Assembly: GCA_041665625.1 (NCBI GenBank)
Contig: JBAYIK010000001.1
Coordinates: 196,341 to 260,340, forward strand
Reading direction: 5' to 3'
From: Minisyncoccota bacterium
Lineage (GTDB): Bacteria > Patescibacteriota > Minisyncoccia > Phycocordibacterales > XYD1-FULL-46-19
DNA length: 64,000 bases
The notes beneath the pieces were generated by a model. That model did not search any database, was not told the DNA's origin, and saw only the letters and a list, made by a program, of their open reading frames with translations. The translations under genes were made by a program, and so were the position numbers. This document shows, in pieces, positions 4,574 through 40,162 of the stretch (its first letter is position 1; each line of letters starts with the position of its first letter).

Positions 4574-5950
4574 ATGGCCGTCAACAAACAACCTTTTGCC
4601 AACAAGCAACCCTTCGCCGGGACAAAATTACGAATCCCTCCCAATGATCAAGATGCTGAACAAGCGCTCTTGGGTTCTGTGATGATTAGCCCTAAGAGTT
4701 TGGGTGAGATTGCCGACTTTCTAAAACCAGAGGATTTTTATTCTATTCGTCATCACAAAATTTATAATGCTATGCTCGACTTGGCCGACGTTGGCCAACC
4801 TGTCGATATTGTCTCAGTCTCATCTAAACTTAAAGACAAAGGCCTCTTAGAGAGTGTCGGGGGTTCGAGTTATATCGCTGAGATTGCGGGCAAGGTTCCC
4901 TCTGCCGCCAACATTGGTCATTATGCCGAACTTGTTCACAAAAAATCTGCCCTACGTAGTCTCATTACTTCAGCCGATGAAATTTCTGAACTTGGCTATA
5001 AAGAAAACGAGGATGTCAGCGACGTTCTTGATCGAGCCCAGAAAATTATTTTTAATCTTGGTTCTTACGCTACTAAGAAAATCGTCAACTTGAAAGATGC
5101 CCTGGCAGAGGCCTGGGAACGCTTCGACCACCTGAGCAAAACTGAAGGCGAGATCCGAGGGGTCTCCACTGGGTTCAAAGGTCTTGATGATAAACTCGCT
5201 GGCTTACAAAAATCTGATTTAATTATTCTCGCGGCTCGCCCATCAATGGGTAAGACTTCGCTCGCCCTAGATATTGCCCGCCATGCCGCTTGTCGCAATA
5301 AAGTGCCAACGCTTATCTTTTCACTCGAAATGAGTACCCAACAACTAACTGACCGCCTGCTCTCCGCCGAGAGCTTCGTCGACTCCTGGAAATTGCGCAC
5401 TGGGGCTATCCGCGCCGATGAAGATTTTGCTCGCTTGCGTGACGCCCTAGATTCACTCGCTCAAGCCCCAATCTTTATTGACGATGAACCTTCTAATAAT
5501 ATTCTCCGCATGAAGTCTGAGGCCCGCAAACTTAAAGCCGAACATGGCTTAGGTCTTATCGTTGTCGACTACCTCCAGCTCATGGTCCCCCGCACCCAAT
5601 CAGATTCTTTAGTGCAACAAATCACCGAGGTCTCACGATCGCTAAAAGCGCTCGCCCGTGAAATTGACGTGCCAGTGCTTGCTCTCTCTCAACTAAACCG
5701 TGCCGTTGAGCAACGTGGTGGCAAGCCTCGCCTCTCCGACTTGCGTGACTCAGGCTCTATCGAACAGGATGCTGACGTAGTACTCTTCATCCATCGTGAG
5801 AAAGATGAGACCAGTAACGAGAAAAACAGCCTGGCCGAGATCATGATTGAGAAGCACCGCAACGGCCCCACTGGGAAAGTGGATCTCTACTTCGACGCCC
5901 AACGCACCAGCTTCTCCGATATTGAAAAGGGCGATTTTGGAACTTTTTAA
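4574..5950 (+). CDS. dnaB: replicative DNA helicase DnaB
   Basis: DnaB N-terminal domain 'AEQALLGSVM', Walker A 'ARPSMGKTS', RecA-like C-terminal domain. The track ORF starts at 4544, but an in-frame ATG at 4574 follows the uORF. Confidence 0.9.
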   Translation: MAVNKQPFANKQPFAGTKLRIPPNDQDAEQALLGSVMISPKSLGEIADFLKPEDFYSIRHHKIYNAMLDLADVGQPVDIVSVSSKLKDKGLLESVGGSSYIAEIAGKVPSAANIGHYAELVHKKSALRSLITSADEISELGYKENEDVSDVLDRAQKIIFNLGSYATKKIVNLKDALAEAWERFDHLSKTEGEIRGVSTGFKGLDDKLAGLQKSDLIILAARPSMGKTSLALDIARHAACRNKVPTLIFSLEMSTQQLTDRLLSAESFVDSWKLRTGAIRADEDFARLRDALDSLAQAPIFIDDEPSNNILRMKSEARKLKAEHGLGLIVVDYLQLMVPRTQSDSLVQQITEVSRSLKALAREIDVPVLALSQLNRAVEQRGGKPRLSDLRDSGSIEQDADVVLFIHREKDETSNEKNSLAEIMIEKHRNGPTGKVDLYFDAQRTSFSDIEKGDFGTF

Positions 5951-5964
5951 AATTTAAAAAATGA

Positions 5965-6045
5965 GGGTCTGCGTCTGGCTTTTTGAAAATGTCTGGCCGA
6001 AGGCGAAGCCTCAGGAGATCCGAGGACTTTTCAAAAAGCCGGAGG
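5965..6045 (+). promoter_or_regulatory. long imperfect hairpin between dnaB and recR (GGCTTTTTGAAAA ... TTTTCAAAAAGCC)
   Basis: 13-bp inverted repeat flanking about 50 nt that includes further GC pairing. Possibly an unusual terminator or processing site. Confidence 0.35.
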
Positions 6046-6073
6046 CTGGCCCGAATCATCACTTGAATTCATT

Positions 6074-6694
6074 ATGGACCCCATCAATCAATTAACCGAT
6101 TTATTTAAAAAATTTCCCGGCATTGGCCCTCGCCAAGCCCGGCGTTTTGTTTATTATCTACTATCGGCCGACCAGAATATTGTTGACCAAATGAGTGAGA
6201 AAATTAAAAATCTCAAACAATCAATTAAACAATGTTCCGAGTGCCAACGCTATTTTAGCAATAGCTATAATGCAAAAAATAGCCTATGCAAAATCTGCGC
6301 TGATGGATCACGAGACAAAGGTAGTCTCTTAATTGTCGAGAAAGATATCGACCTTGAGGCCGTTGAGCGGTCCGGCTCCTATAAAGGTTATTACTTTGTG
6401 CTCGGTGGGTCTGTCCCAATATTAGACCCCAATCCAGAAACCCACGTGCGCTTCCCTATTTTACTTTCCCTTTTAGAAAAAAAGATTAGCGAAGGTTTGA
6501 GCGAAATTATTGTCGCTCTCGCCGTCACCACCGAAGGTGAACATACCGCCCACTGGTTAGCGGCCAAACTGCATCCCTTAGCCCTCCAAGCTAAAATAAA
6601 AATTTCCTTCCCCGGCCGCGGTCTCTCCACGGGCAGCGAGTTAGAATATGCCGACTCCGAGACAATCAAAAATGCTCTAAAAAATCGGCAGTAA
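6074..6694 (+). CDS. recR: recombination protein RecR
   Basis: HhH 'FPGIGPRQARR', C4 zinc finger 'CSECQRY..CKIC', Toprim domain. Confidence 0.9.
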   Translation: MDPINQLTDLFKKFPGIGPRQARRFVYYLLSADQNIVDQMSEKIKNLKQSIKQCSECQRYFSNSYNAKNSLCKICADGSRDKGSLLIVEKDIDLEAVERSGSYKGYYFVLGGSVPILDPNPETHVRFPILLSLLEKKISEGLSEIIVALAVTTEGEHTAHWLAAKLHPLALQAKIKISFPGRGLSTGSELEYADSETIKNALKNRQ

Positions 6695-6720
6695 GATTTC
6701 TCTCACTGCCGATTTTTTAT
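6683..6720 (+). terminator. intrinsic terminator overlapping the recR stop
   Basis: AATCGGCAGT..ACTGCCGATT stem followed by TTTTTT. Confidence 0.7.
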
Positions 6721-6880
6721 TTACTTGACCTTCACCTTCTTAGGCTTCTTGGTCTCGCGTCGTTGTTTATCACTTCCTTTGGCCATATATTTTTATTTAT
6801 TAATAATAATTGAACTTTTTACAATTATATTATAACAAAGCTAGAAAATTATTTCTATTTTTTATGCACTCAAAGTCCAA

Positions 6881-7163: not shown

Positions 7164-8018
7164 TTATCTAACGATAACAAGACTATTATCAAAACGGGCC
7201 CAATCAATCAAAAAAGAACGTCGGCTCAACTTCAAGCGACCAGCCGTAGGATCGTTGATGATTAAATAACTTGGATTATCATCATCACCCTCGTAACCAA
7301 TAATCGTTCTCACGTGCTCACCTGTCCAAGCCTTGATGGTTTTGCCTTCAAGCGTCTGCCACGGATCAAAAGTCATGTTACTCTTGGCCACACCCCAATA
7401 AATTACGGGGTGACCCGCCTTAAGTTCGCGGACAATGTCAGCATAAGTAGCACCACTCTGACCCTCACTCTCTGGCCTCCACGCTTGGGCCAAATCTCTA
7501 ATTACCGGCCAATGAACACCATAACCGGTCGTGTTTTGGGCCCCATCGATAGAGCCAACAAACTCTTTGTCTGGATCCCCCCAAATATTACCAATGCGCG
7601 GGGCTGGGTTAATAGGCATAATCTCAATAATGTCACTCTCATTAATTTTTACTCCGACACCGGCCAAAGCCATACGCAAGGCGGCAATTTCACAGGACAA
7701 ACTGTGTTGCTGATAATAGAGCGGGATAGGCAAGACAAATCGATTAACAACGGGTTCTTCAATTTTTATCTCAGGTTTAAGTTCTTTTGTCGTTGTTGAA
7801 CTAAAGGTAGAGAAACTGCCTTCATTTTTAGCTAAAACCGGTTCAGCTTTCAAAACTCGCTTAGTCTTCAGCACTGACTCATCCACCAAAGCTTCAACCC
7901 TTGTCTCTTGATTAAAATAAAGAAAACAAAAAGCCGCCGCCTCGGCGAATAAAATCAAAAAAATAATTAAGACAATTGTTTGTCTTTTCACACTATAATT
8001 ATAAAACAAAATCACCAA
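7164..8018 (-). CDS. membrane-anchored C39-like (Peptidase_C39_2) cysteine-peptidase domain protein
   Basis: N-terminal TM, then 'YYQQHSLSCEIAALRMAL' (catalytic Cys context) and a downstream His, as in YvpB/C39-like proteins. Confidence 0.6.
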   Translation of the reverse strand: MVILFYNYSVKRQTIVLIIFLILFAEAAAFCFLYFNQETRVEALVDESVLKTKRVLKAEPVLAKNEGSFSTFSSTTTKELKPEIKIEEPVVNRFVLPIPLYYQQHSLSCEIAALRMALAGVGVKINESDIIEIMPINPAPRIGNIWGDPDKEFVGSIDGAQNTTGYGVHWPVIRDLAQAWRPESEGQSGATYADIVRELKAGHPVIYWGVAKSNMTFDPWQTLEGKTIKAWTGEHVRTIIGYEGDDDNPSYLIINDPTAGRLKLSRRSFLIDWARFDNSLVIVR

Positions 8019-12915: not shown

Positions 12916-13419
12916 TTATTTATAGATGGCGATGAGTTGGCGGAGGATGAGTGATTGAGGGGTGATCTCGTGGCCAGAGAAATCAAACCAAACTCGCAAG
13001 AAATCTTCTCGTTTAATTTTTCTTTCTCCGCCAAGCTCCGGATCTTGAAGATAGATATAATCGTCATCCAGACCCGACACCACTGAGTAATGACCGTCGG
13101 GCACCTCCGAATCATCATAATCTTGTCGCCCCCGAGTGAACCAATTCACAATGACCGGTGTCCCCTTCTCGAGCCACTCCTCAATCTCCGCAAAACTGCT
13201 CTCAGTCTTAATCTCCGCCCTGAAGCCAAGAGACTCTGCCGCCCGGACGATATCTTTGTCGCTAACGCCAAGATCAGAGACCAGACCCGTCAGCTCGGCC
13301 AATTCTTTCTCCGTCTTCTCAACTCCATAATAATCCAAGACAATCTTAAGCGAAGCCGGCCCGCACATCCCCGCATGCAAGGTTTCTTGAAAAGGTTTAA
13401 TGGCTAGATGTTTGTTCAT
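12916..13419 (-). CDS. C39-like (Peptidase_C39_2) cysteine-peptidase domain protein
   Basis: 'HAGMCGPASLKIVLDYYG' (Cys), '...DGHYSVVSGLDD' (His), 167 aa. GGGG SD supplied by the upstream repeat element. Confidence 0.6.
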   Translation of the reverse strand: MNKHLAIKPFQETLHAGMCGPASLKIVLDYYGVEKTEKELAELTGLVSDLGVSDKDIVRAAESLGFRAEIKTESSFAEIEEWLEKGTPVIVNWFTRGRQDYDDSEVPDGHYSVVSGLDDDYIYLQDPELGGERKIKREDFLRVWFDFSGHEITPQSLILRQLIAIYK

Positions 13420-13472
13420 TTTTTTCCCCGAAGTCGTATCTCGCGTAGCCAGATCCGACTTCTTAGCTTAAC
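13420..13472. repeat. short copy of the intergenic element 'CCCCGAAGTCGTA..(loop)..ATCCGACTTCTTAGCTTAA'
   Basis: 7-bp inverted repeat GAAGTCG/CGACTTC. The minus-strand orientation gives 'GGGGAAAAAAATG' providing SD and start for 12916..13419. Related copies at 15121 and 16423. Confidence 0.6.
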
Positions 13473-13864
13473 ATTTTATAATATTCGGGATAACTTTTCT
13501 TAATAAAATTCTTCCAACAAGCTGTCTCATTACCATGACCTAAATCTTTTTTCCCATAGACAAGAAGGACTCTTACAACCCCCTTGTCTTTATGAAGAGC
13601 GACAATGCACCGATTGCCAGAACCGTGTCTTGACTCTTGAGTTCCGGAAATTTTAAATTCTGTCTTACAAATAACGATATCTGCATCTTTATCTGTTATC
13701 GGCTCAGCAATACTCTTCAAAAATAGGGCGTCAATCTTCTCAAATTCCTCAGCGATAGTCCCAAGTGTAAAGTCCCAAGCTCCCTTATACTTCTTAGCAA
13801 AAGATTTTATAAAGTGCCTCTCCGCAAAAGGCTCGAAGATAACTCTATACTTAGTAAACCTCAT
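13463..13864 (-). CDS. putative toxin partner of the Panacea-domain antitoxin (small protein, unknown family)
   Basis: About 134 aa from 'MRFTKYRVIFEPF...', overlapping the 3' end of the upstream HTH-Panacea gene by about 14 nt. The track ORF runs to 13912. Confidence 0.45.
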   Translation of the reverse strand: MRFTKYRVIFEPFAERHFIKSFAKKYKGAWDFTLGTIAEEFEKIDALFLKSIAEPITDKDADIVICKTEFKISGTQESRHGSGNRCIVALHKDKGVVRVLLVYGKKDLGHGNETACWKNFIKKSYPEYYKMLS

Positions 13865-14534
13865 GAGGATCTTCCTGTGTAATAAGAGCGTAAGAGACAA
13901 TTTCTTCATCATCAGCCATTAAATATGGCAGTTGGTTATGAGTAAAATTAACAATTTCGGCTGTTTTTTTATCTTTCCACTTTCTATGAATTTCTTTCAT
14001 TAAGTTTTCTTCCTCAGGCAAAATAGATTCTAACTTTTGTTTTTTATTACTATCTGACTCACTAATTATAATCATTTCTTTGCCATCAGCGTTCTTGCGG
14101 TCAACGATTATCTTTCCTTCTTCCTCAAGCTCATCAAGGGCTCGAAAATAAGAATCTGGAACTGGCCCATATTTAATTTTACGATACTGCATACCACTCA
14201 TGCTATTCAAATGACTATAAAACCAGGCAAAATCAGAGAGATAGACAAGTTTGGCCAATTTAGTCTTTTTAACACTTTTACCCAATCGGAGAAAAGACAG
14301 GATCATCTGCTTATATTTCTCGTAATTAGGAGACTCACCCTTCTCCATCTCTTCGAAAGGTATATTTAAAATGCCTGAGAGTTTTTCAAATTCACTCATA
14401 GACAGCTCTCTCTTCCCCTGTTCAATGGCAATATAAGAAGGACGAGAAAGACCCAATTTAGAGGCTAAGTCTAATTGGGAGAGACCTTTCTTAAGTCGAG
14501 AGGCTTTAATCAGCTTCGCGTACTTAGTAATCAT
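13851..14534 (-). CDS. HTH_XRE plus Panacea (DUF4065, SocA-like) domain protein, antitoxin-like
   Basis: 'LSQLDLASKLGLSRPSYIAIEQGKR' is Cro/C1 HTH. 'KLAKLVYLSDFAWFYSHLNSMSGMQYRKIKYGPVPD' is the Panacea signature. ATG at 14534 has a TATACT box 12 nt upstream (track ORF to 14696). Confidence 0.65.
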   Translation of the reverse strand: MITKYAKLIKASRLKKGLSQLDLASKLGLSRPSYIAIEQGKRELSMSEFEKLSGILNIPFEEMEKGESPNYEKYKQMILSFLRLGKSVKKTKLAKLVYLSDFAWFYSHLNSMSGMQYRKIKYGPVPDSYFRALDELEEEGKIIVDRKNADGKEMIIISESDSNKKQKLESILPEEENLMKEIHRKWKDKKTAEIVNFTHNQLPYLMADDEEIVSYALITQEDPHEVY

Positions 14535-14781
14535 ATACCAATAAGTATACATAAACGTGTAAATAATGCAAACATAGGTGTTGATAAGTTTGACATAAAA
14601 AATAAACGGAGTAAAATTTATAGAGGAGAGAGCCTTTTTGCGGAAATCCTCTCCCCTAAAACATAAATATCTTTTTTGCCCTTTGGGGTATTTCAACTAA
14701 ACTAATAAGTAAAAACTTTAACACTTTTATTTTACCAAATTTAGATTAATTAATAAACAAGGGTAACTAACCAAACATTCA

Positions 14782-14982
14782 ATGCCTTATTACACTCGTA
14801 ATACCGGCAAATCGTGGACACCAAAAGATGTGACGCAGTTAAAACAGCTCGTTCGTCAAAATACACCAACACGAGTCGCCGGATTCAAACTTGGCAGAAC
14901 TGAAGATGCGGTCAGAGCAGAGGCCAGTAAACTCTCCCTCAGCTTAAAGCCAACAAACCAGTCGCCGCACAATAGAAAGTAG
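14782..14982 (+). CDS. small putative DNA-binding (HTH-like) protein
   Basis: 66 aa. '...WTPKDVTQLKQLVRQNTPTRVAGFKLGRTEDAVRAEASKL' resembles sigma-70 region-4/terminase-small-subunit-like HTH. Its own terminator follows. Confidence 0.45.
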   Translation: MPYYTRNTGKSWTPKDVTQLKQLVRQNTPTRVAGFKLGRTEDAVRAEASKLSLSLKPTNQSPHNRK

Positions 14983-14996
14983 ACCTTAAATTTGAA

Positions 14997-15037
14997 AAGA
15001 AAGAACGAGACCGCAACTCGTTCTTTCTATTTTTTTA
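14997..15037 (+). terminator. intrinsic terminator
   Basis: AAGAACGAG-ACCGCAA-CTCGTTCTT then TCTATTTTTTTAT. Confidence 0.7.
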
Positions 15038-15068
15038 TCTATAATTTATGAGACTAACCTCAGTCTCC

Positions 15069-15102
15069 TCATCCCAACAAACTCCAGTTTGTAAAGATGT
15101 TT
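15069..15102. repeat. copy 3 of the 34-bp element
   Basis: TCATCCCAACAAACTCCAGTTTGTAAAGATGTTT. Confidence 0.7.
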
Positions 15103-15120
15103 AGGCGTTTTTCTTTCTTC

Positions 15121-15140
15121 TCCCCTTTTCCCCGAAGTGA
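15121..15140. repeat. partial copy of the 'CCCCTTTTCCCCGAAGT' element
   Basis: Matches the 5' part of the elements at 13420 and 16423. Confidence 0.45.
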
Positions 15141-15202
15141 GTTTTAGTTGTTATGACACATTTTACCCTTGAGACGAGGCCTGACCTCGTTTCTCTAATA
15201 AA

Positions 15203-16342
15203 TTAATCTGCTATATCAATATCAGGGATATCTCCATAATACTGGAGTGCCCGAAGTATTGCCGGAAAAAGGGTGGAATCAGATACCGGATGCATGACAA
15301 AAGGAGGGAGAGCTTGCAAGTTCTGTCCAGAAGAAGCCTTCTCGTCAGCCTGGTAATGAAAAGAGAAATTAGTGAAATACAACGCATTCCAAGCAGAAGG
15401 ATTTTCTTTTGTAACATTTTTGGAATGAGAGGCATTTTTAAAGATATTTTTCACCCACGGTATCTTTTTAAAATCCCCTGATTCTTCATGTGGTACATTT
15501 ATATCAACAAAGACAAGAAAAGGCATCTTGCCACACTCTGTTTTTTTAAAGGCCTGGTTAAGGAGACGTTGGATACCTCCGCCATTAATTTTGGACCCAT
15601 TAACATCTCCTGGGGTATGAAGGATTCCAGGCCTGTGCCTACTTTTAGCTTCGACGGCGATTTCTACTCCTGACTCTTGATGTGTGGCAATAAATTCACA
15701 ATGTGGCTCTGAATGGTCTTCTTCATCTAGCCATCTTATATTAAAACCTAATCGCGCAATGATTGCAGCAATCATAATTTCGTATCTTGCCCCTTGATAT
15801 TCTAACGGCGTTTTAAGACGACCAAGAAGAAAGTCAGGTATTCTAGAAACATGTCTTAGTGTTGAAATATCAAAAGCAAGAGAAATTAAAGATTTAGTCC
15901 ACCCGTTTGGAGGAGCCTCTAATACGCCAGGGGTTTTATAATTAGGTTTAGCCAAGAGTTCTTTTTTCCATTCATCAAATTTCAAAAAACATTTCACAAT
16001 AAAATGTTGATCTTCCCACAACAGAGACTGTTGCTCATTAATCCATTCGAAACTCAAAGTATCTTTAAGAATAAATTGAATAAAATCATGAAAGGTCTCA
16101 TCAGAATTTTCGCTAAGATATACTTGATTACCAATTGCCCAGACTTTTTTCCCTTTGTGAATTACCGGGTTAACATAATTAATATAAATCCCTTTTTGCT
16201 TAAGAAGATTTTCTTTTTCTCGTATTTTTTTAAAATGTAAGAGTACTTCCATGGGAACAGGTGAGTTATCTTCATCCATATGACATTTTTTATATTTCTT
16301 ACCACTTCCACAGTGGCAAAGCTGGTTTCTTCCTAATTTCAT
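15203..16342 (-). CDS. SEC-C metal-binding motif protein with possible PD-(D/E)xK nuclease-like core
   Basis: N-terminal 'CHCGSGKKYKKCH' (SEC-C). The central 'EPHCEFIATHQESGVEIAVEAKSRH' resembles an E..ExK restriction-endonuclease-like signature. No other recognised domain. Confidence 0.55.
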   Translation of the reverse strand: MKLGRNQLCHCGSGKKYKKCHMDEDNSPVPMEVLLHFKKIREKENLLKQKGIYINYVNPVIHKGKKVWAIGNQVYLSENSDETFHDFIQFILKDTLSFEWINEQQSLLWEDQHFIVKCFLKFDEWKKELLAKPNYKTPGVLEAPPNGWTKSLISLAFDISTLRHVSRIPDFLLGRLKTPLEYQGARYEIMIAAIIARLGFNIRWLDEEDHSEPHCEFIATHQESGVEIAVEAKSRHRPGILHTPGDVNGSKINGGGIQRLLNQAFKKTECGKMPFLVFVDINVPHEESGDFKKIPWVKNIFKNASHSKNVTKENPSAWNALYFTNFSFHYQADEKASSGQNLQALPPFVMHPVSDSTLFPAILRALQYYGDIPDIDIAD

Positions 16343-16422
16343 AATAATTTATTTTTTAATCATGTCCTCACAACACACCACGTTGTTCAACAGAATTGAA
16401 TCAATGGGAACGACCCCATTAA

Positions 16423-16541
16423 TCCCCTTTTCCCCGAAGTCGTACTTCAAGCGCTTGCCCTGCGCCGTGCCGGCCATAGCTTTAGCGAAGACTAGAAGCT
16501 TCGGTGAAGTAGGGAGCTCGAAATCCGACTTCTTAGCTTAA
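16423..16541. repeat. long copy of the intergenic element (same ends as 13420..13472, with an extra internal segment of about 75 nt)
   Basis: 'CCCCTTTTCCCCGAAGTCGTA' ... 'ATCCGACTTCTTAGCTTAA'. Lies between the methyltransferase and SEC-C genes. Confidence 0.6.
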
Positions 16542-17812
16542 GAAACAAAATCCAAGAGAGACTTTCCAAGCCTCTCAATAACTCCAACGACCAGAGCATT
16601 ACCCATAATAAAGGCTCTTTTTGTGTCTGGGGTAACTTTTCCATTTAACATAAATTTTGTGTGGTCAGAAGGAAACATGTTTAACTTCTCCAACTCAAGT
16701 GGGGTAAGCCGGCGAAGCCTGCCAGATTTAGTCTTAATGACGTGTTTAAAGCGCGAGGGAGAACTTCCACCTTCCCCCGTCACAATTGTTCTGGATGGCT
16801 TATCAAGAGAATCAGGAAAAGCCATTGGGCCTTCTGAGTAATCATATTCAAACCCATCTTTTGATTTCCGCCCCTCTTTCTTTCCACCTTTTAAATATTC
16901 CCATCTTTTTTGATCAGCCTTTTTTATAAAAAATTCTTCTGGAATTTTTGCTTCGTCGTGAATAATAATATTTTTAAGTAAAATAGACTTACCATTATAA
17001 TTAGGCACAGATTTTACTGAGTAGACTTTTCTATCAATCATAACTCCGGAAACATCAAAAGGGCTTTTAGTTGGTTTATTTGAAGAAAAATTCTTAGATA
17101 TTTCCTCCAGACTTCCCTCAATTCTAAATTCGCCCAATTTACCTTCACCTTTTTTCACAGGGAAAGCTTTAGCAATTACTCCATCTTTGTAAATCCAATT
17201 TTCAAGATTTTTTTCTTTTTTAATAGCATTAAAAATCTTACTGCCTTTTTTATACCCCATAATAAAAACTCTTCTCCTTCTTTGCGGCATCCCGTAATCG
17301 GCCGCATTTACAACCCTCCATTCAACTGCATAACCAAGATAAGAAAGAGAGGTCAGCATAACAGCAAAATCTCGACCTCTCTGTCCTGAAGGGGATTTTA
17401 ATAATCTATCGACATTCTCTAACATTAAAAAGTTCGGGGAATTTTTTCCTTTTTTATTTAAGATATTATAAATAGACCACCATAAAACACCTTTCTTACC
17501 ATAGATACCCTTAGCCTGGTTCGCTGTTCTCGCAACAGAATAATCCTGACAAGGAAATCCCCCGACAAGTAAATCATGGTCAGGTATTTCTTTAAATTTA
17601 TTTTCAACGACATCTTGGATATCTTCACAAGAATGTCCCTCTTCTCCAAATATGTTTATATAAATCTGAGAAGCATGTTGTGTAGCTGCCCCTGGTTCCC
17701 ATTGGCTATTCCATACTGTCTCATATTTTAAGTCTTTTTTACTTGCAGCATCAAGGCCAAGGCGGAAGCCCCCAACACCGGCAAAAAGCTCAAGGACTCT
17801 TATTTTCTTCAT
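16538..17812 (-). CDS. DNA (cytosine-5)-methyltransferase
   Basis: Motif I 'LFAGVGGFRLGL', motif IV 'GGFPCQDYS', motif VI 'ENVDRLL'. Adjacent to a Sau3AI-like endonuclease. Confidence 0.85.
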   Translation of the reverse strand: MKKIRVLELFAGVGGFRLGLDAASKKDLKYETVWNSQWEPGAATQHASQIYINIFGEEGHSCEDIQDVVENKFKEIPDHDLLVGGFPCQDYSVARTANQAKGIYGKKGVLWWSIYNILNKKGKNSPNFLMLENVDRLLKSPSGQRGRDFAVMLTSLSYLGYAVEWRVVNAADYGMPQRRRRVFIMGYKKGSKIFNAIKKEKNLENWIYKDGVIAKAFPVKKGEGKLGEFRIEGSLEEISKNFSSNKPTKSPFDVSGVMIDRKVYSVKSVPNYNGKSILLKNIIIHDEAKIPEEFFIKKADQKRWEYLKGGKKEGRKSKDGFEYDYSEGPMAFPDSLDKPSRTIVTGEGGSSPSRFKHVIKTKSGRLRRLTPLELEKLNMFPSDHTKFMLNGKVTPDTKRAFIMGNALVVGVIERLGKSLLDFVS

Positions 17813-17843
17813 AAAGAGATTCTAACAGATAGCGTCAAAAAGA

Positions 17844-19247
17844 TCAATATTGATCTTTTTGGTTTTCTATGGCCTGCTGTATATACTTAGCATTTAACCA
17901 AAAACACCGTTTCATTTCCTGTGTTTTTTGGGGAGTTTCAATGGTATCTGTACTGTCTTTCCCGTGAGGTCGAACGTGGGCAACAGGACTTTCCTTCATT
18001 TTTGGCAAATCTTCGTACCGACCATCCTTAATACAATCAACTGTTTTTTGCCAGACCTTTTCTACCTCACCAATGTCTTTCATCGGAAAATTCCAGAAGA
18101 AGGTTTTCTTCAATATTATATTTTTACTCCTCTTTTCCTTTTGAAAAACGACAAATAAAAACTTCTTTGTCTCCAGCTGTAAATGAAACTCGGCCATAGT
18201 TTCGTCTTCTTCGTCAAACCACAAATCATTTACTAAACTTTTGTAGTCGAATGCAGGAAAAGAAATAGATTCTCTTAGTGTCCCGGTGTGTTCAAGAGTA
18301 ATGACTCTAAGTGTAATGTTGGCCTTCTCTAATTCCTCTACATTATTTGATTCAACGTCTAATATCCTGTTAACAATTAATCTTTTGTAACTCTTTGATT
18401 TTTTGCCGAGACTTGAATTTAACTTAGCTAGTATCTCCGTGTCTGTTTTGCCAATAAATTGGCTAAATTTTTCTTTAACAACATCTTCAATTGTTTCAAT
18501 TCTCCGGTGTTTCTTAAAGATTGAGTCAGTATTTGTTTTTTCTCCAAGCAGTTTAGTCTGAATAAGGTAATTGATATATTGCTGTTTAAAAGAAAAGGCT
18601 CTCGGTTTCGCAGCGATGCGCCCCATCGGCTGATCCCTAACAACTCGGCTATTAGCCGCTTTAGTGCAAGCTCCCAGATAATAAGTATCTCCCTCAGAGA
18701 GCAAGTGGGCTTCCCCTCGTTTAATCTTATTTACTATATATTCCCAGTCTTTTTTAATCTGAAAAACATCTTCGTCGGAAATATCCTCAAGGAGCTTCAG
18801 CAAATGGACAAACTTGAACTCATAATCAAGGATACTTTGACTTTCAATCCAAAGATAGAACATCAGTAGTAAAGTTTTATTCTTTTTTAGGAAAGAGCTT
18901 TGTTCCCAGGTCTCACCGACAACGGTATCATAATTAATCATTGAAAAGACGAGACGCTCCTTAGAGGAGAGCTTACCGGTGTTGTGTTTTTTTAGAGGAG
19001 TAGTCTTCAGCTCAACACTCGCAACAGTAAAATCTGGTTCACTTATATTACCTGGATTGATTTCGAAAAAATATTTTTCCATTAAATCACCCAAAAAACC
19101 TTTGCGTTTCAATCCGTACCCACCAATTTGTTCTTCAATTGCCCCGAGACTTCCAGAAGGGATGACTTGGCGCAAAGACTTTTGCAAAATAGTCTTTGCT
19201 TTCTCTAAAACCTGTTCTTTTGTGTTATATGTTTGAGACATGTTCAA
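17844..19247 (-). CDS. Sau3AI/MutH-family type II restriction endonuclease (GATC-type predicted)
   Basis: 'EPDFTVASVELKTTPLKKHNTGKLSSKERLVFSMINYD', 'EAHLLSEGDTYYLGACTKAANSRVVRDQPMGRIAAKPRAFSFK' and C-terminal 'HVRPH...FWLN' parallel the MutH/Sau3AI catalytic and duplicated domains as I recall them. Confidence 0.7.
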   Translation of the reverse strand: MNMSQTYNTKEQVLEKAKTILQKSLRQVIPSGSLGAIEEQIGGYGLKRKGFLGDLMEKYFFEINPGNISEPDFTVASVELKTTPLKKHNTGKLSSKERLVFSMINYDTVVGETWEQSSFLKKNKTLLLMFYLWIESQSILDYEFKFVHLLKLLEDISDEDVFQIKKDWEYIVNKIKRGEAHLLSEGDTYYLGACTKAANSRVVRDQPMGRIAAKPRAFSFKQQYINYLIQTKLLGEKTNTDSIFKKHRRIETIEDVVKEKFSQFIGKTDTEILAKLNSSLGKKSKSYKRLIVNRILDVESNNVEELEKANITLRVITLEHTGTLRESISFPAFDYKSLVNDLWFDEEDETMAEFHLQLETKKFLFVVFQKEKRSKNIILKKTFFWNFPMKDIGEVEKVWQKTVDCIKDGRYEDLPKMKESPVAHVRPHGKDSTDTIETPQKTQEMKRCFWLNAKYIQQAIENQKDQY

Positions 19248-19900
19248 ATATTAGAAATAAAACTTGCCGACAAAGTTTTAGAAACCACAACATGATCAAC
19301 GACTTTAATGTCTAAGATTTTCCCCGCACTGATTAGCTTCTTAGTAACCTCGATGTCATCAGCGGAGGGTTCAAGGTCGCCAGAGGGATGATTATGAGAA
19401 ATTATAATTGAAGAGGCGTTATTTTTAATGGCTCCCTCAAAGACTTCTCGAGGATGAACAAGGCTTTCATTAAGAGTGCCAATTGAAATAATATCTCTTT
19501 GTATTTCTTGGTTACGGCTATCCAGGTAAAAAACAACAAAGTGCTCCTTTTTGCTTCCCCTTATGTCCTCCATCCTCTCCCAGACATCTTTTGGGGAAAG
19601 TAATATAGAGGATTTCTTGTCTTTCAACATCCTTTTGCCAAGCTCAAAACAGGCCATAATTTCACAAGCTTTTGCCGAACCTAGGCCATGGATAGTTTTT
19701 AATTCATCAATACTTATATCAACAAATTTTTCGTTTTCAAATTTCTGTAAGATTTTTTGAGCTAGTTTTAGCACATTCAAATCTTTTGTACCAGTACGAA
19801 GCAAAATCGCCAGCAATTCGACGTCAGATAATTTGCCCGGACCATACTTTTCCATCTTCTCTCTTGGTCTATCAACACGGGGTAAATCCTTAATTTTCAT
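19244..19900 (-). CDS. radC: RadC-like JAB/MPN domain protein
   Basis: 'HNHPSGDLEPSADDIEVTKKL' is the JAMM motif. HhH-like N-terminus. Confidence 0.8.
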   Translation of the reverse strand: MKIKDLPRVDRPREKMEKYGPGKLSDVELLAILLRTGTKDLNVLKLAQKILQKFENEKFVDISIDELKTIHGLGSAKACEIMACFELGKRMLKDKKSSILLSPKDVWERMEDIRGSKKEHFVVFYLDSRNQEIQRDIISIGTLNESLVHPREVFEGAIKNNASSIIISHNHPSGDLEPSADDIEVTKKLISAGKILDIKVVDHVVVSKTLSASFISNI

Positions 19901-19996
19901 AATTTATTTTCCTATTCTACCACATTTCTCGCCTTTTTACGATAAACCAAAACACCCCCGAAGGGAAGGGTGTTTTGAGTAAGTACCTAGAATTAT

Positions 19997-20293
19997 CTAG
20001 ATTACCTTCCAGAGAAATTTACGATAAGCGGGAGAGAGGTCCGCCCAAGATTTAAAGGCTTTATATTGAGCAATGGATTGTTGAGAATTTTTTGAATCAA
20101 TCGTCTCAATCTCAATAACGACTTCAGCATTCCCATTCCGTACGTAAACATCAGGAATATAGCCATTAATAACTGGCGGTTTATTGTTTCCGGGCAAATC
20201 CGAATAAACAACAGGCCAACCAGCACGAACATATTGAGAAGCAATATTTGCCACTTCAGTATCGTGGATAACTTGATTTTCTTTTGGTCTCAT
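19997..20293 (-). CDS. hypothetical small protein (weak PD-(D/E)xK-like 'IPDVYV...EVVIEIE')
   Basis: 98 aa with a flanking hairpin terminator at 19945-19975. Function unknown. Confidence 0.4.
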   Translation of the reverse strand: MRPKENQVIHDTEVANIASQYVRAGWPVVYSDLPGNNKPPVINGYIPDVYVRNGNAEVVIEIETIDSKNSQQSIAQYKAFKSWADLSPAYRKFLWKVI

Positions 20294-26734: not shown

Positions 26735-27796
26735 TTAATCGTCTAAGCTTGGCTTTTCTATCAACTCCGGTTCAAAACCGGCCGAGGCACCCGTGACCCG
26801 CATTACGTCCTTGTCCACTTTCTTAAGCTCCTTATAGGCCAAATTATAGTGATTTACCGAGGTTCCCAGAGCATTCCCCAGCTTGGCCATATAGCCCTCA
26901 TAAGCCCCTATATGCTTGCCTAGCTCCTCGACCCTCTTACGTATCTCCTTGGCCGATTCTTCGATCTGGAGGGCTTTTAGGCCCTGTAGGACGGTCTGTA
27001 GATAGGCCAGGAAGCTCGTCGGGGAGACGATAATAACGTGATATTTAGAGGCGGCCCGCTGGATGAGATTCTCAGTATTCTCGTCCTGGAGGGCCCCAAT
27101 TTTGTTAATTAGAAGGTCATAATAAATGGCCTCGTGGGGGATGAACATGAAGGCAAACTCCATAGTCCCCTGGTCGGGCTGAACATATTTGGCCGTCTCG
27201 GTAATACGATTCTTGAGGTCATTCACAAAGACTTTCTCATACTTCTCTTTCTCAGTCTCATTCCTCTCCCCCACTATGCGATTATAATTTTCTAGAGAAA
27301 ACTTAGAGTCGATCGGGATTATTTTATCTTTGACAAAAACCACAGCATCAACAATGGTGCCATCAGAAAAAGGATATTGCATCTGATAAGAGCCCGGGGG
27401 CATAATATTCTTGAGCAAGGTCTCGAGATAATACTCCCCCACTATCCCGCGCTGTTTAGGATTTTTTAAAATATCTTGAAGTGATTGAAGTTGATCGGTG
27501 AAGTTAACAACTTGTTTATTGGTCTCTTCTAGCCTGACAAGTTTTTCTGTCACCTCTCGAGACAATCTAGAAAATTCATTAAACTGCGAGCGCACGTTCT
27601 CAGCGGACATTTTGTTAGTCTCGAGCAAACGACTGTCGATAGTTTTGGTAAGATTCTCAATCTGATTCTGCAAGAGCATCATCGCACTATTATCTTGAGG
27701 CTTAATTGTCTCCTTCTGTCCCAATAAACGCAAAGCAATAAAAGCCAGACTGAAGCCCGCGACGAGAGCAATAATGACAAAGATTATGGTGTTCAT
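26735..27796 (-). CDS. rmuC: DNA recombination protein RmuC
   Basis: N-terminal TM, long coiled coil, RmuC C-terminal domain. Confidence 0.8.
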   Translation of the reverse strand: MNTIIFVIIALVAGFSLAFIALRLLGQKETIKPQDNSAMMLLQNQIENLTKTIDSRLLETNKMSAENVRSQFNEFSRLSREVTEKLVRLEETNKQVVNFTDQLQSLQDILKNPKQRGIVGEYYLETLLKNIMPPGSYQMQYPFSDGTIVDAVVFVKDKIIPIDSKFSLENYNRIVGERNETEKEKYEKVFVNDLKNRITETAKYVQPDQGTMEFAFMFIPHEAIYYDLLINKIGALQDENTENLIQRAASKYHVIIVSPTSFLAYLQTVLQGLKALQIEESAKEIRKRVEELGKHIGAYEGYMAKLGNALGTSVNHYNLAYKELKKVDKDVMRVTGASAGFEPELIEKPSLDD

Positions 27797-30773: not shown

Positions 30774-31748
30774 TTATATATTAGAAGGTGAAAATACCGC
30801 ATACAAGAAAGGATAGCTGTCGGTATTTATCGAATCTATCGTCGATATTTCGGTTAGCACTTTGCATTCATCAATATCTACTACAACCATTTTGCCGGCT
30901 TCTTCTTCAAGTTTAGATGTCGCTTTTTTTACTATCAAGATTGAGGGAAGATTGATAGGCCACAACGTATCGTTTGGCTCGACGGGATTACCAATAATTA
31001 GATTCGGGCATACCAATGTTTGGTTATCTGTCCTATAAAATTTGGTCCTTCCAAACATATAACTTTGGTTATAATTAGCAATATATTTTCCATCGGGTGA
31101 GACACTAAAACTTTTACCATTATCGATTGGAATGTCGTATGAGCTAATCTTGAAGTCTGGAAGATTGACTGATTTTAGGGATTTATTTGTATCATACTTT
31201 GTATATGCATTTTCTGTATAAAAGTATTTATTGTCCCTTGTCCAACCTATTTTGGATACATTGAGACTATCACCAAATTCCTCGAATGCTTCATTTTTTA
31301 TCATCTTACCAACTTCGATCTTTTTTTGACTTAAGCTATCTCTAATAACAAGGCTGTTACTATTTTTATATACAACATATCTATGATCAAATGACCAACT
31401 TGGAGGATCCACAGAAACAGGGCCTTCAAATCTAAAAACTTCATTTTTAACATCTGAAGCTATTAATTTTGATTGAGGATTAGAAAAATTGCCAATATAC
31501 AATTTCCCATCAAGTATATAACTAAATTCATTGTTATTAATCCATACTAATGGACTTGCTCCTCTTTTGTATGAAGTTCCTGATGAAGTAATGGTTACTG
31601 TGACCTTATTTGTTTCAACATCCCTTATCTCAACCATCTCTCCACCGTTTACCAAATATGATATATATTTACTATCAGGAGACCAATTTATATCCGTATA
31701 TGCTTTGTCCCCAGGCATAATTAAGTCTCTTTTTTCGGAAGAATTCAC
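30774..31748 (-). CDS. WD40-like/TolB-like beta-propeller repeat protein (N-terminus probably missing)
   Basis: Repeated 'SPDGKYI' blades. Start codon is GTG. The frame stays open upstream to 31943, where DNA composition switches to GC-rich. No signal peptide. Confidence 0.6.
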   Translation of the reverse strand: MNSSEKRDLIMPGDKAYTDINWSPDSKYISYLVNGGEMVEIRDVETNKVTVTITSSGTSYKRGASPLVWINNNEFSYILDGKLYIGNFSNPQSKLIASDVKNEVFRFEGPVSVDPPSWSFDHRYVVYKNSNSLVIRDSLSQKKIEVGKMIKNEAFEEFGDSLNVSKIGWTRDNKYFYTENAYTKYDTNKSLKSVNLPDFKISSYDIPIDNGKSFSVSPDGKYIANYNQSYMFGRTKFYRTDNQTLVCPNLIIGNPVEPNDTLWPINLPSILIVKKATSKLEEEAGKMVVVDIDECKVLTEISTIDSINTDSYPFLYAVFSPSNI

Positions 31749-31902
31749 AACAACAAGGGATACTCCCGTTTTACCATAATCAAATTTCCCAATAGTTCCA
31801 TCACGGTCAAAGTTTAATCGCGAGTAAATAATATATTTACCATTAGGAGACCACCTCGGGCTTAAAATACTTTCATTGTCGGCCTCTACTAATTTCTTAG
31901 TG

Positions 31903-32526
31903 CTACCCTCTTTGTCGACGATGGAAGTAGTACTCGGGGTTAATCACACGCGGGACTGCGTCGGCCAGGCAGGTCGCTCCCCAGACCACGCAGATGAAAC
32001 CCACAACATAAGGGATGAATACGGCGGTAAAGCCTCTCCACCCACTCTCCGAGAAAAGGTTCTGGCTGTCGAAGATTGACTCTCCCTTTTCGCATTTCCA
32101 CTTTCTCCTGACGACCGACGAGAAGACGACCGCCACAAGGAACAGAGTCCATGGCACGATCAACTCGCTGATCGCCGCCGCGTATTGCTGCTTGACGAAG
32201 ATCTTCCAAATCTGCGGCGACACCTTCTCGAGTGTCACAGAGATGGAGCTCACCAACTGGGTGACCATGTCGAGCGCCCGATCGGCGACTCTGGACATGT
32301 CCACGCTTGGCTTTTCGAGGCTGTTTGGATCCGTCTTGGCCGGCGCGGCCTTTGGCGTCTCCACCCCGAACAATCCGACCAGAGACTGAAGCTGGGCCTG
32401 AGCCGTCGCCTTCTCAGCCGGTGTGAACACCTTCTGCGAGGTATCGATGGGGGCCTCTTGCGCCATCGAAACGACGGGGACGCAGAGGAACGACAGGACG
32501 ACTGCCAACAAAACGAGCTTATGCAT
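31903..32526 (-). CDS. hypothetical secreted protein (GC-rich insert)
   Basis: SD GGAAGAAGGAAAC then ATG. Signal peptide 'MHKLVLLAVVLSFLCVPVVSMA', C-terminal TM. The last 14 codons read through into AT-rich flank DNA. Confidence 0.55.
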   Translation of the reverse strand: MHKLVLLAVVLSFLCVPVVSMAQEAPIDTSQKVFTPAEKATAQAQLQSLVGLFGVETPKAAPAKTDPNSLEKPSVDMSRVADRALDMVTQLVSSISVTLEKVSPQIWKIFVKQQYAAAISELIVPWTLFLVAVVFSSVVRRKWKCEKGESIFDSQNLFSESGWRGFTAVFIPYVVGFICVVWGATCLADAVPRVINPEYYFHRRQRG

Positions 32527-38997: not shown

Positions 38998-39813
38998 CTA
39001 AGCAAGTTCTACTCTTAATTCAGCTCCAGCCTCATCGCCAACTAATTTTAAATCATGAATATAGTCTAGGGCTCTTCTTCTAAGGACAGGGTCTTTTTCT
39101 CTTTCTCCTACTAAATCTCTACCTATATTAATTTCTTTACCCTTATAAGTTCTTCTTTTCCTAGTTGGTTTTACATAATAAAATTGTCTACCCTCTTTTT
39201 CTTCGTCACGCTCTTGTTCAGAATTAAACTTTTTATCATTATCATAAAATAAATAAGAATAACCTCCCCAATCATTTATATAAAAGCCTGAAGTTTTTGG
39301 CTGGCCAGCATCATTCCAAATATTCTGATAGCCACGCATTCTAAAAATATCCACTATTTCATCGAGTTGGCCACAACACCCCATCTCAGATAAAAGGACT
39401 CCATCTTTTACATTATTAATAGCTTTTTCACAACCCCTATTTGTTTCGTCATAAATCAATATTTTTTCGTTTTTGTTGATACCCCTTTTTTCTTCATAAT
39501 CTTTATAGATCTTATTATTGTCGCAAAAATAGCCCCTATTTCCTCTATCCATGGCAAATCTGAAGAAATTTGGCGCTTTTTCATTTGGGTAAGCTTGGCG
39601 CCAAGTATTTCTTAATAACCAACCAAAAGGAACGGCGCTTGTTTCTGTCAAAAAAATATGATCTGGTGCAATTTCGTCGTGCCAAGTTTTTACTCTCTCT
39701 TTAGCCCACTCTCGATAACGGACAACGTCTTCGGGTGTCATCACGCGATAATGTTTCTCTCCACCTTCTTGATTTGCTTTATTTCCTAATTGGAAAAAAT
39801 CTTCTTGGCTCAT
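38998..39813 (-). CDS. hypothetical protein
   Basis: 271 aa, no recognised motif. Confidence 0.5.
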   Translation of the reverse strand: MSQEDFFQLGNKANQEGGEKHYRVMTPEDVVRYREWAKERVKTWHDEIAPDHIFLTETSAVPFGWLLRNTWRQAYPNEKAPNFFRFAMDRGNRGYFCDNNKIYKDYEEKRGINKNEKILIYDETNRGCEKAINNVKDGVLLSEMGCCGQLDEIVDIFRMRGYQNIWNDAGQPKTSGFYINDWGGYSYLFYDNDKKFNSEQERDEEKEGRQFYYVKPTRKRRTYKGKEINIGRDLVGEREKDPVLRRRALDYIHDLKLVGDEAGAELRVELA

Positions 39814-39817
39814 ATTT

Positions 39818-40162
39818 TCAACTATTATTTAGCTCTTTTAATAGCTCCTCATAAAAAACAAACAAAGAATTTTCACCCTCAAAATCAAGTTTGGGGGACG
39901 ACTTATAATCGGTCCCTCCAGATACTTCGATGTGGAAAGCTAGATATTTACTACGATCTTCATAGGTAGCAAAAATTTTTTCTCTTTGCTTATCAATTTT
40001 TTGCCAAAAATAATCCTGCTTCTCTTGATCTTCAATATCAAAAATTTTAGCTAATACAGTGTTCCTAAGGTCATTGAACTTTTTAAAAAAATCATGCCAT
40101 TTTTTTTCTTCCAACAAAATTCCTTCATTATCAGAATTTATTTTAGGAGAATCTTCAGACAT
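39818..40162 (-). CDS. hypothetical protein
   Basis: 114 aa. Confidence 0.45.
   Translation of the reverse strand: MSEDSPKINSDNEGILLEEKKWHDFFKKFNDLRNTVLAKIFDIEDQEKQDYFWQKIDKQREKIFATYEDRSKYLAFHIEVSGGTDYKSSPKLDFEGENSLFVFYEELLKELNNS

Follow-up and report, generated by a model that had tools for sequence, protein, structure and literature searches.

Several described enzymes act at the sequence GATC. DpnIII, which is 34% identical to Sau3AI, still cuts GATC and is paired with a 5-methylcytosine (5mC) methylase, and GATC is likewise the cutting site of Sau3AI, LlaKR2I and MutH (PMC4471560). The product of the methylase M.Sau3AI is GAT(m5C) (PMC3287169). According to a preprint that discusses Sau3AI, the N domain of the enzyme is catalytic, the binding of one GATC by the non-catalytic C domain relieves autoinhibition, and a second GATC is cut (bioRxiv 10.64898/2026.04.21.719898). 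Here we describe a restriction-modification (R-M) pair, an endonuclease (R) and a methyltransferase (M), encoded on the minus strand of a 64-kb stretch of DNA, which we call the window, from an uncultured genome of the Patescibacteria (Candidatus Paceibacterota). We consider it highly probable that the pair is an intact type II R-M system of the Sau3AI family.

Both proteins are already present in GenBank at 100% identity, on a 293,061-bp contig of a Candidatus Paceibacterota metagenome-assembled genome (MAG), under the names 'Sau3AI family type II restriction endonuclease' and 'DNA (cytosine-5-)-methyltransferase'. In addition, more than 100 clusters at 70-84% identity occur in MAGs labelled as Nomurabacteria, Taylorbacteria, Vogelbacteria, Yonathbacteria, Staskawiczbacteria, Peregrinibacteria and Minisyncoccia. 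A literature search gave nothing that links Sau3AI-type systems with Patescibacteria, or the candidate phyla radiation (CPR) with GATC R-M. There is nothing out of the ordinary about the pair: it belongs to a well-known family, was correctly annotated by automatic means, and shows no unusual feature in its enzymes. The parts that deserve the attention of specialists, at the level of sequence comparison only, are the linkage of the pair to radC and the GATC-bearing promoter of M.

The endonuclease and the methyltransferase

The window had been read before from its letters and its open reading frames (ORFs), and this sequence-only reading placed two ORFs on the minus strand, 17844..19247 (467 aa, from TTG) and 16538..17812 (424 aa). 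Both are in the six-frame ORF list. The peptides that it quoted were also all found: PDFTVASVELKTTP, KERLVFSMINY and HVRPH...CFWLN in R, and FAGVGG, PCQ and ENV in the second ORF. The length of 467 aa holds for R as an ORF from TTG, but not for the protein, which almost certainly starts with the ATG at 19241 and has 465 aa. The TTG lies two codons 5' of this ATG. Because this TTG shares nucleotides with the stop codon of radC, and because the identical GenBank protein (100% identity and coverage) has 465 aa, we adopted the ATG start. The positions of all features are shown in Table 1.

Then R and M were compared with protein families and known structures. R scored 434.6 bits against the NCBIfam equivalog NF040973 (restrict_Sau3AI), the cutoff of which is 300, and its residues 7-460 corresponded to positions 1-474 of the 475 positions of the model. 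Among all PDB sequences, the best match to R was Sau3AI (4pxg_A, E=3.5e-58; residues 37-416 of R with residues 42-427 of the chain), and the next matches in order were the structures of the Sau3AI C-terminal domain (7xm0/2reu) and then E. coli MutH. These two results bear out the Sau3AI-family identity that had been proposed for R. The sole Pfam domain detected in R was MutH (residues 61-153, E=3.5e-25). M matched Pfam DNA_methylase (PF00145) with 208.7 bits (E=1.9e-61) and TIGR00675 (dcm) with 223.6 bits. The matches of R and M to their families are far beyond chance.

In order to compare the active site, we aligned 11 sequences, namely R, three homologues from Patescibacteria, six Sau3AI-family proteins from outside the CPR (Clostridium, Lactiplantibacillus, Streptococcaceae, Muribaculaceae, Segatella and Anaerocolumna) and a fragment of Sau3AI. 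The residues D70, E77 and K79 (PDFxxAxVELK) were invariant across the CPR, Bacillota, Bacteroidota and Sau3AI, and E55 and the ERLV segment were likewise invariant. The earlier reading had named a closest relative of different specificity, or a loss of the catalytic residues, as what would speak against it. Neither was found, and the MutH-type D-X6-E-X-K triad was conserved throughout the alignment. Furthermore, residues 30-230 of R aligned with the E. coli MutH structures 1azo/2azo at an E value of about 1e-9.

The 11-sequence alignment was also split into N and C halves, and the two profiles were compared by hhalign. They proved homologous (probability 96.5%, E=7e-10, 201 columns), so the second MutH-like region that had been suspected in R is real. 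The positions of the C half that are equivalent to D/E/K read E/T/R; the catalytic Glu is therefore lost in the C-terminal domain. This domain matched the Sau3AI C-domain structures 7xm0 and 2reu with E values of about 1e-13 to 1e-14, and by analogy it is predicted to be a non-catalytic effector that binds GATC. As judged from these alignments, R is a genuine member of the Sau3AI family with the two-domain architecture given in the literature.

The neighbour of R is the C5-methyltransferase that had been expected. Motifs I, IV (PCQ) and VI (ENV) were found, together with motifs VIII and X, and all five are invariant in the methylase alignment. We compared M with the methylases that adjoin Sau3AI-family enzymes in five non-CPR loci of Bacteroidota and Bacillota (Segatella, Muribaculaceae, Clostridium, Lactiplantibacillus and Anaerocolumna). 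M aligned with them over its full length at 39-58% identity. Within the variable, target-recognition region (residues 196-360), 152-165 of the 165 positions were covered in these five partners, with 27-51% identity and 18 invariant residues. Solved C5-methylases of other specificity (HhaI, HaeIII, Dnmt1 and Dnmt3) aligned only to residues 4-195 of M, and weakly to motifs IX-X. Motif I begins at residue 10 of M, which means that M has no N-terminal DNA-binding extension. Autoregulation of the SsoII/EcoRII type, which works through such an extension of the methylase, was ruled out on this ground. In the Segatella copri locus (L005), a 511-aa ORF (5332-6867) separates the Sau3AI-family gene from that of the methylase, and the methylase has a C-terminal extension of about 150 aa.

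A query for Sau3AI itself (residues 42-427) was rebuilt from the 4pxg alignment, with the E64A change of the crystal reverted. The scan of genome contigs with this fragment returned four loci, none of them a close Staphylococcus locus; the best was a Streptococcaceae MAG at 53% identity, in which the methylase is cut off at the contig end. A tblastn search of plasmids gave Sau3AI-family genes in Bacillus, Priestia, Lactiplantibacillus and Clostridium, and pKR223/LlaKR2I was not among the matches.

From family membership, we strongly infer GATC/5mC specificity for the pair, since every member of the family that has been characterised works on GATC with 5mC. The divergence between R and Sau3AI is of a degree at which specificity can be kept, since DpnIII at its similar distance retains GATC. 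The window contains 186 GATC sites, and an active R therefore needs an active M. The observed/expected ratio (O/E) of GATC under a second-order Markov model is 0.78, which is the third lowest among the 16 palindromic tetramers in the window. Thus the under-representation of GATC for which a check had been proposed does exist, but it is only mild, and 15 of the 16 palindromic tetramers are also below 1.

The radC-R-M cassette and the promoter-like element of M

The gene radC precedes R. The RadC protein of the window matched Pfam RadC (E=2.8e-40) and UPF0758_N (E=5.1e-26) as well as the NCBIfam RadC equivalog (239.5 bits, cutoff 180), and its JAB metal motif HxH-x7-S-x2-D is intact (HNHPSG...S..D). 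The radC stop codon lies 2 nt 5' of the R start codon, and M starts 31 nt past the R stop codon. No second radC was found within the window.

We collected 29 related loci through the R endonuclease and four more through RadC homologues. In every one of the 30 related loci whose sequence continues downstream, M was next to R, and the same held in six non-CPR loci. Of the 25 related loci with enough upstream sequence, 19 had radC 5' of R in the same orientation. When the comparison was started from RadC, 48 of its 60 closest homologues (on contigs of at least 5 kb) were on contigs equal in size to those of the R or M matches. Four of the twelve remaining homologues were inspected directly, and R-M was found downstream in each. 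Identities among six loci were 74-84% for RadC, 72-85% for R and 68-82% for M, and in the most distant loci they were about 50%, 56-65% and 58-61%, respectively. In these comparisons, the three proteins diverge in step.

The outer flanks of the cassette are unrelated between loci, and different housekeeping genes are found there each time. The sole flank gene in common is pilM (L007 and L010), and its identity is 26% where that of R is 85%. The GC content of the cassette is 1.4-8 points under the average of each locus. In two loci, a gene for a large serine recombinase (Resolvase, Recombinase and Zn-ribbon domains) abuts the cassette (L037, 8375-9706; L038, 1311-2960), and these recombinases may be a vehicle for mobility. 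Terminator-like hairpins bracket the unit in the window. The co-divergence, the unrelated flanks, the lower GC, the recombinases and the terminators together argue that radC-R-M is a three-gene unit that moves horizontally. Across Patescibacteria, radC-R-M apparently behaves as a mobile cassette whose genomic setting changes from locus to locus. Between radC and R, the relatives have a variable slot, which in some of them is occupied by other defence genes; in the window this slot is empty, which is the minimal form.

In nearly all loci, R lies within 18 nt of the preceding gene or overlaps it, and R is therefore apparently without a promoter of its own. Upstream of radC, where the sequence is unrelated between loci, no conserved promoter or GATC was found. 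In L012, L015 and L019, the end of a short XRE-type helix-turn-helix (HTH) gene coincides exactly with the radC start codon. This gene, which the window lacks, may add a regulator to the cassette as its fourth member.

A promoter-like element lies before M, and its -35 hexamer TTGATC contains a GATC site. Of 23 distinct R-M junction sequences, 22 had the pattern TTGATC-N17-TAnnnT, as did all four loci that were retrieved independently through RadC; overall, it is conserved in 30 of 31 CPR junctions. All 32 occurrences of the pattern on both strands of 643 kb were at the R-M junction, and none was elsewhere. In the window, the hexamer also holds the R stop codon. The pattern is kept where the R stop codon lies upstream of TTGATC (L009, L021, L025, L033 and L024), and the conservation of the hexamer therefore does not simply reflect a coding constraint. 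Outside the CPR, TTGATC-17-TATAAT was found upstream of M in three of the five loci scanned, namely a Clostridium tagluense plasmid, a Lactiplantibacillus plasmid and a Muribaculaceae contig (twice); the Segatella and Anaerocolumna loci lack it. In the three loci that bear the pattern, the orientation of R and M is convergent or divergent. The conservation of GATC in the -35 gives independent support to GATC as the probable functional site of the family.

The -10 hexamer ends 6-7 nt from the ATG of M in most loci. Because it is only 6 nt from the ATG in the window, the M transcript is probably leaderless. In the CfrBI system, methylation of a single promoter site lowers the expression of the methylase and raises that of the endonuclease (bioRxiv 10.64898/2025.12.04.692298). 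By analogy, the conserved element suggests that M may be under methylation-sensitive control. A perfect 24-bp palindrome, AAAAAGATCAATATTGATCTTTTT, overlaps the -35, and a hairpin was reported around it at 17834-17863. Most relatives have the shorter form AGATCAAnnTTGATC. The palindrome could be a weak hairpin at the 3' end of R or a two-site element.

Table 1. Positions of the features of the cassette in the window and of genes beside it in related loci (L numbers)
Feature	Position	Strand	Basis or remarks
Terminator-like hairpin upstream of radC	19947..19978	minus	Left edge of the transcription unit
radC, 218 aa	19244..19900	minus	First cassette gene; N-terminal UPF0758/HhH region and RadC JAB domain
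R, Sau3AI-family type II restriction endonuclease, 465 aa	17844..19241	minus	ATG at 19241; stop codon TGA at 17846-17844
N-terminal MutH-like catalytic domain, R residues 1-236	18534..19241	minus	Pfam MutH at 61-153 and MutH structure alignment
Catalytic motif D70-X6-E77-X-K79 (PDFTVASVELK; 465-aa numbering)	19005..19034	minus	Invariant in alignment; codons read directly
C-terminal second MutH-like domain, R residues 244-465	17847..18512	minus	Holds HVRPH and CFWLN; hhalign and PDB
Perfect 24-bp palindrome	17837..17860		Two GATC sites 10 bp apart; spans the R end and the -35
Promoter-like element of M	17819..17847	minus	Promoter scan and conservation
-35 hexamer TTGATC	17847-17842	minus	Contains the GATC site and the R stop codon TGA
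-10 hexamer TAGAAT	17824-17819	minus	17-nt spacer from -35; preceded by TG (TGtTAGAAT); ends 6 nt before the M start
M, C5-cytosine DNA methyltransferase, 424 aa	16538..17812	minus	Pfam, TIGRFAM and motifs
M motifs			I FAGVGG 10-15; IV PCQ 87-89; VI ENV 132-134; VIII QRRRR 177-181; X GNA 404-406
M catalytic Cys88 in PCQ (codon)	17551-17549	minus	
Variable/target-recognition region, M residues 196-360	16733..17227	minus	Alignment; between motifs VIII and IX
Terminator-like hairpin 113 nt past the M stop	16398..16425	minus	Right edge of the unit
OLD-family ATPase-TOPRIM nucleases	L011 4271-6004; L018 2383-3987		Slot cargo
AIPR/AbiU	L015 1661-3472; L036 5663-7474		Slot cargo
PDC-M43B-like HATPase protein	L016 2140-3635		Slot cargo
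Small NOV_C/Hjc-like protein	L010 5556-6008; L019 1810-2262		Slot cargo
Vsr genes	L019 4940-5398; L021 219-680; L023 3532-3993; L029 6679-7128; L032 6695-7162; L038 8397-8771		Adjoin R-M

Weighing of the explanations and a possible mechanism

Some points weigh against an intact system with GATC specificity. R is about 37% identical to Sau3AI, which is a distance at which specificity could in principle drift. The avoidance of GATC in the window is weak and is not diagnostic of specificity. The promoter-like element of M is a consensus match only, and the promoters of Patescibacteria are poorly characterised. The first two of these points, together with the identity of the variable region of M to its non-CPR partners (27-51%), are what would favour a genuine Sau3AI-family pair whose recognition has drifted from plain GATC to a longer or different site. 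We regard such a drift as improbable, because DpnIII at its 34% identity, LlaKR2I and even MutH keep GATC (PMC4471560), because 18 positions of the same variable region are invariant across phyla, and because GATC is strictly kept in the -35 of M in 30 of 31 CPR junctions as well as in Clostridium, Lactiplantibacillus and Muribaculaceae. Such conservation would be difficult to account for if the family as a whole did not act at GATC. A somewhat smaller chance is given to an R that is inactive, being silenced or weakened by point changes, with M acting as a solitary epigenetic or anti-restriction enzyme. R in the window has no promoter of its own, and decay does occur in the clade: in L036 (7467-8864), R is split into ORFs of 338 aa and 117 aa beside an intact M, which looks like a decaying copy. 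However, the window R is of full length and retains every residue that is invariant in the family, and its identity of 72-85% to many intact relatives argues for purifying selection.

Least probable of all, and in our opinion very unlikely, is that the 465-aa protein is a mismatch-repair nickase of the MutH type and that the methylase is an unrelated, Dcm-like neighbour. Pfam sees only a MutH domain in R, R aligns to E. coli MutH at an E value of about 1e-9, and several relatives carry the name 'DNA mismatch repair protein MutH' (some JGI records). Nevertheless, R reached only 73.6 and 59.2 bits against the MutH equivalogs NF003458 and TIGR02248, the cutoffs of which are 243 and 229.9. It is twice as long as MutH and, just like Sau3AI, carries a second MutH-like domain. 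In addition, a C5-methylase adjoins R in 30 of 30 loci without an accompanying Dam-type methylase, and the cassette stands in varied genomic contexts with a GC content below that of its surroundings.

We therefore return to the intact Sau3AI-family system and consider how it may work. M would methylate C5 of the GATC cytosine on both strands of the host DNA, and R would cut unmethylated GATC. The active site of R would be D70/E77/K79 in the N-terminal MutH-like domain, as in Sau3AI, and the degenerate MutH-like copy at the C terminus would probably bind a second GATC and relieve autoinhibition, so that cutting would need two sites. R is presumably co-transcribed with radC, because the gap of 2 nt leaves no room for a promoter of its own. 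The layout suggests that, when the cassette enters a new cell, M would be made first from its unmethylated promoter and would then be tuned, up or down, by methylation of its own -35 GATC, as in CfrBI. Such timing, with M first, would be achieved without a C protein and without a DNA-binding extension of the methylase.

A wider reading, which we offer only tentatively and as one joint claim, is that a mobile radC-R-M core has spread through Patescibacteria, that RadC is a working partner in it, that the slot collects defence genes, and that the M promoter senses GATC methylation. As a part of this doubtful joint claim, RadC would, for example, process or repair DNA ends or control R, and sensing through the TTGATC -35 would be shared by Sau3AI-family systems of different phyla.

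RadC is widespread, and its function has been uncertain for decades ('RadC, a misleading name?', cited in PMC3239186). The presence of RadC in a tight, co-diverging and apparently mobile operon with a restriction enzyme is a concrete context for probing its function. The GATC that is fixed in the -35 of M across Patescibacteria, Bacillota and Bacteroidota is a candidate timing device for Sau3AI-family systems that lack a C protein. The pair itself is of use mainly for the methylation that it predicts in an uncultured lineage; this GAT(5mC) could help to bin the reads of Patescibacteria, or to link them to hosts, in methylation-aware metagenomics.

Neighbouring genes and comparison with known systems

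The genome had been called AT-rich, and this was overstated: the GC content of the window is 43.5%, and that of the three cassette genes is about 37%. The stretch at 14000-20000 of the window has 36.5-39% GC against the 43.5% of the whole. It spans a toxin-antitoxin pair, a SEC-C protein, R-M and radC, and it looks like a small defence or mobile island. Two further low-GC kilobases (35-36% GC) lie at 31000-32000 and 39000-40000.

The probable toxin-antitoxin pair (13463-14696, minus strand) consists of a 281-aa protein with HTH_3 and SocA/Panacea domains and an overlapping 149-aa ORF without a family match, and homologous pairs are found close to the cassette in L018 (50-55% identity) and in L008. 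Directly 3' of M is a gene for a 379-aa protein (15203-16342, minus strand), whose sole recognisable domain is an N-terminal SEC-C zinc motif; it had no homologue in the related loci. On the other side, a 98-aa AHJR-like ORF of the restriction-endonuclease fold (19997-20293, minus strand) lies 5' of radC with the terminator-like hairpin between them, and an ORF at the same position in L011 (3295-3543) is 33% identical to it. PADLOC gave no match for RadC, the AHJR-like ORF or the 149-aa ORF, and it matched the SEC-C protein through the zinc motif only. Elsewhere in the window, two Peptidase_C39-like proteins are encoded within 6 kb of each other (7164-8018 and 12916-13419, both minus strand), and an RmuC-family gene lies at 26735-27796.

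In several relatives, a Vsr gene adjoins R-M, and in L021-L023 it stands in place of radC directly 5' of R; in the window, the pair has no Vsr neighbour. Vsr is the very-short-patch repair endonuclease, which repairs the T:G mismatches that arise from deamination of 5mC. Its presence beside the pair thus fits 5mC methylation.

Among the known systems, CfrBI is comparable in its regulation only. CfrBI has its own recognition site in the promoter region (bioRxiv 10.64898/2025.12.04.692298), as the window has GATC in the -35 of M. In contrast, the enzymes are unrelated to R and M, and the CfrBI genes are divergent and share a single site, whereas the pair of the window is in tandem and its site is within the -35 hexamer of M. 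MutH of E. coli and H. influenzae (1azo, 2aoq) has the same fold and triad as R and belongs to the same GATC target family, and the numbering D70/E77/K79 coincides by chance. Unlike R, it is a single-domain nickase of about 225 aa that is activated in trans by MutL and reads adenine methylation.

DpnIII of Streptococcus pneumoniae PMEN1 and LlaKR2I of a Lactococcus lactis plasmid are both characterised Sau3AI-family systems that cut unmethylated GATC and have a 5mC methylase (PMC4471560), a likeness drawn from the published description. DpnIII sits in the dpn locus, whereas the pair of the window lies behind radC. The Sau3AI system of Staphylococcus aureus 3A (4pxg, 2reu, 7xm0) differs in that R has 465 aa and is shorter at the C terminus than the crystallised constructs of roughly 490-509 aa, and in that the pair of the window belongs to a radC-R-M cassette of an uncultured Patescibacterium host. 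The two systems have in common a catalytic MutH-like N domain with the same triad and a non-catalytic C domain. In addition, R passes the same curated family model and has a C5-methyltransferase as its partner, as Sau3AI does.

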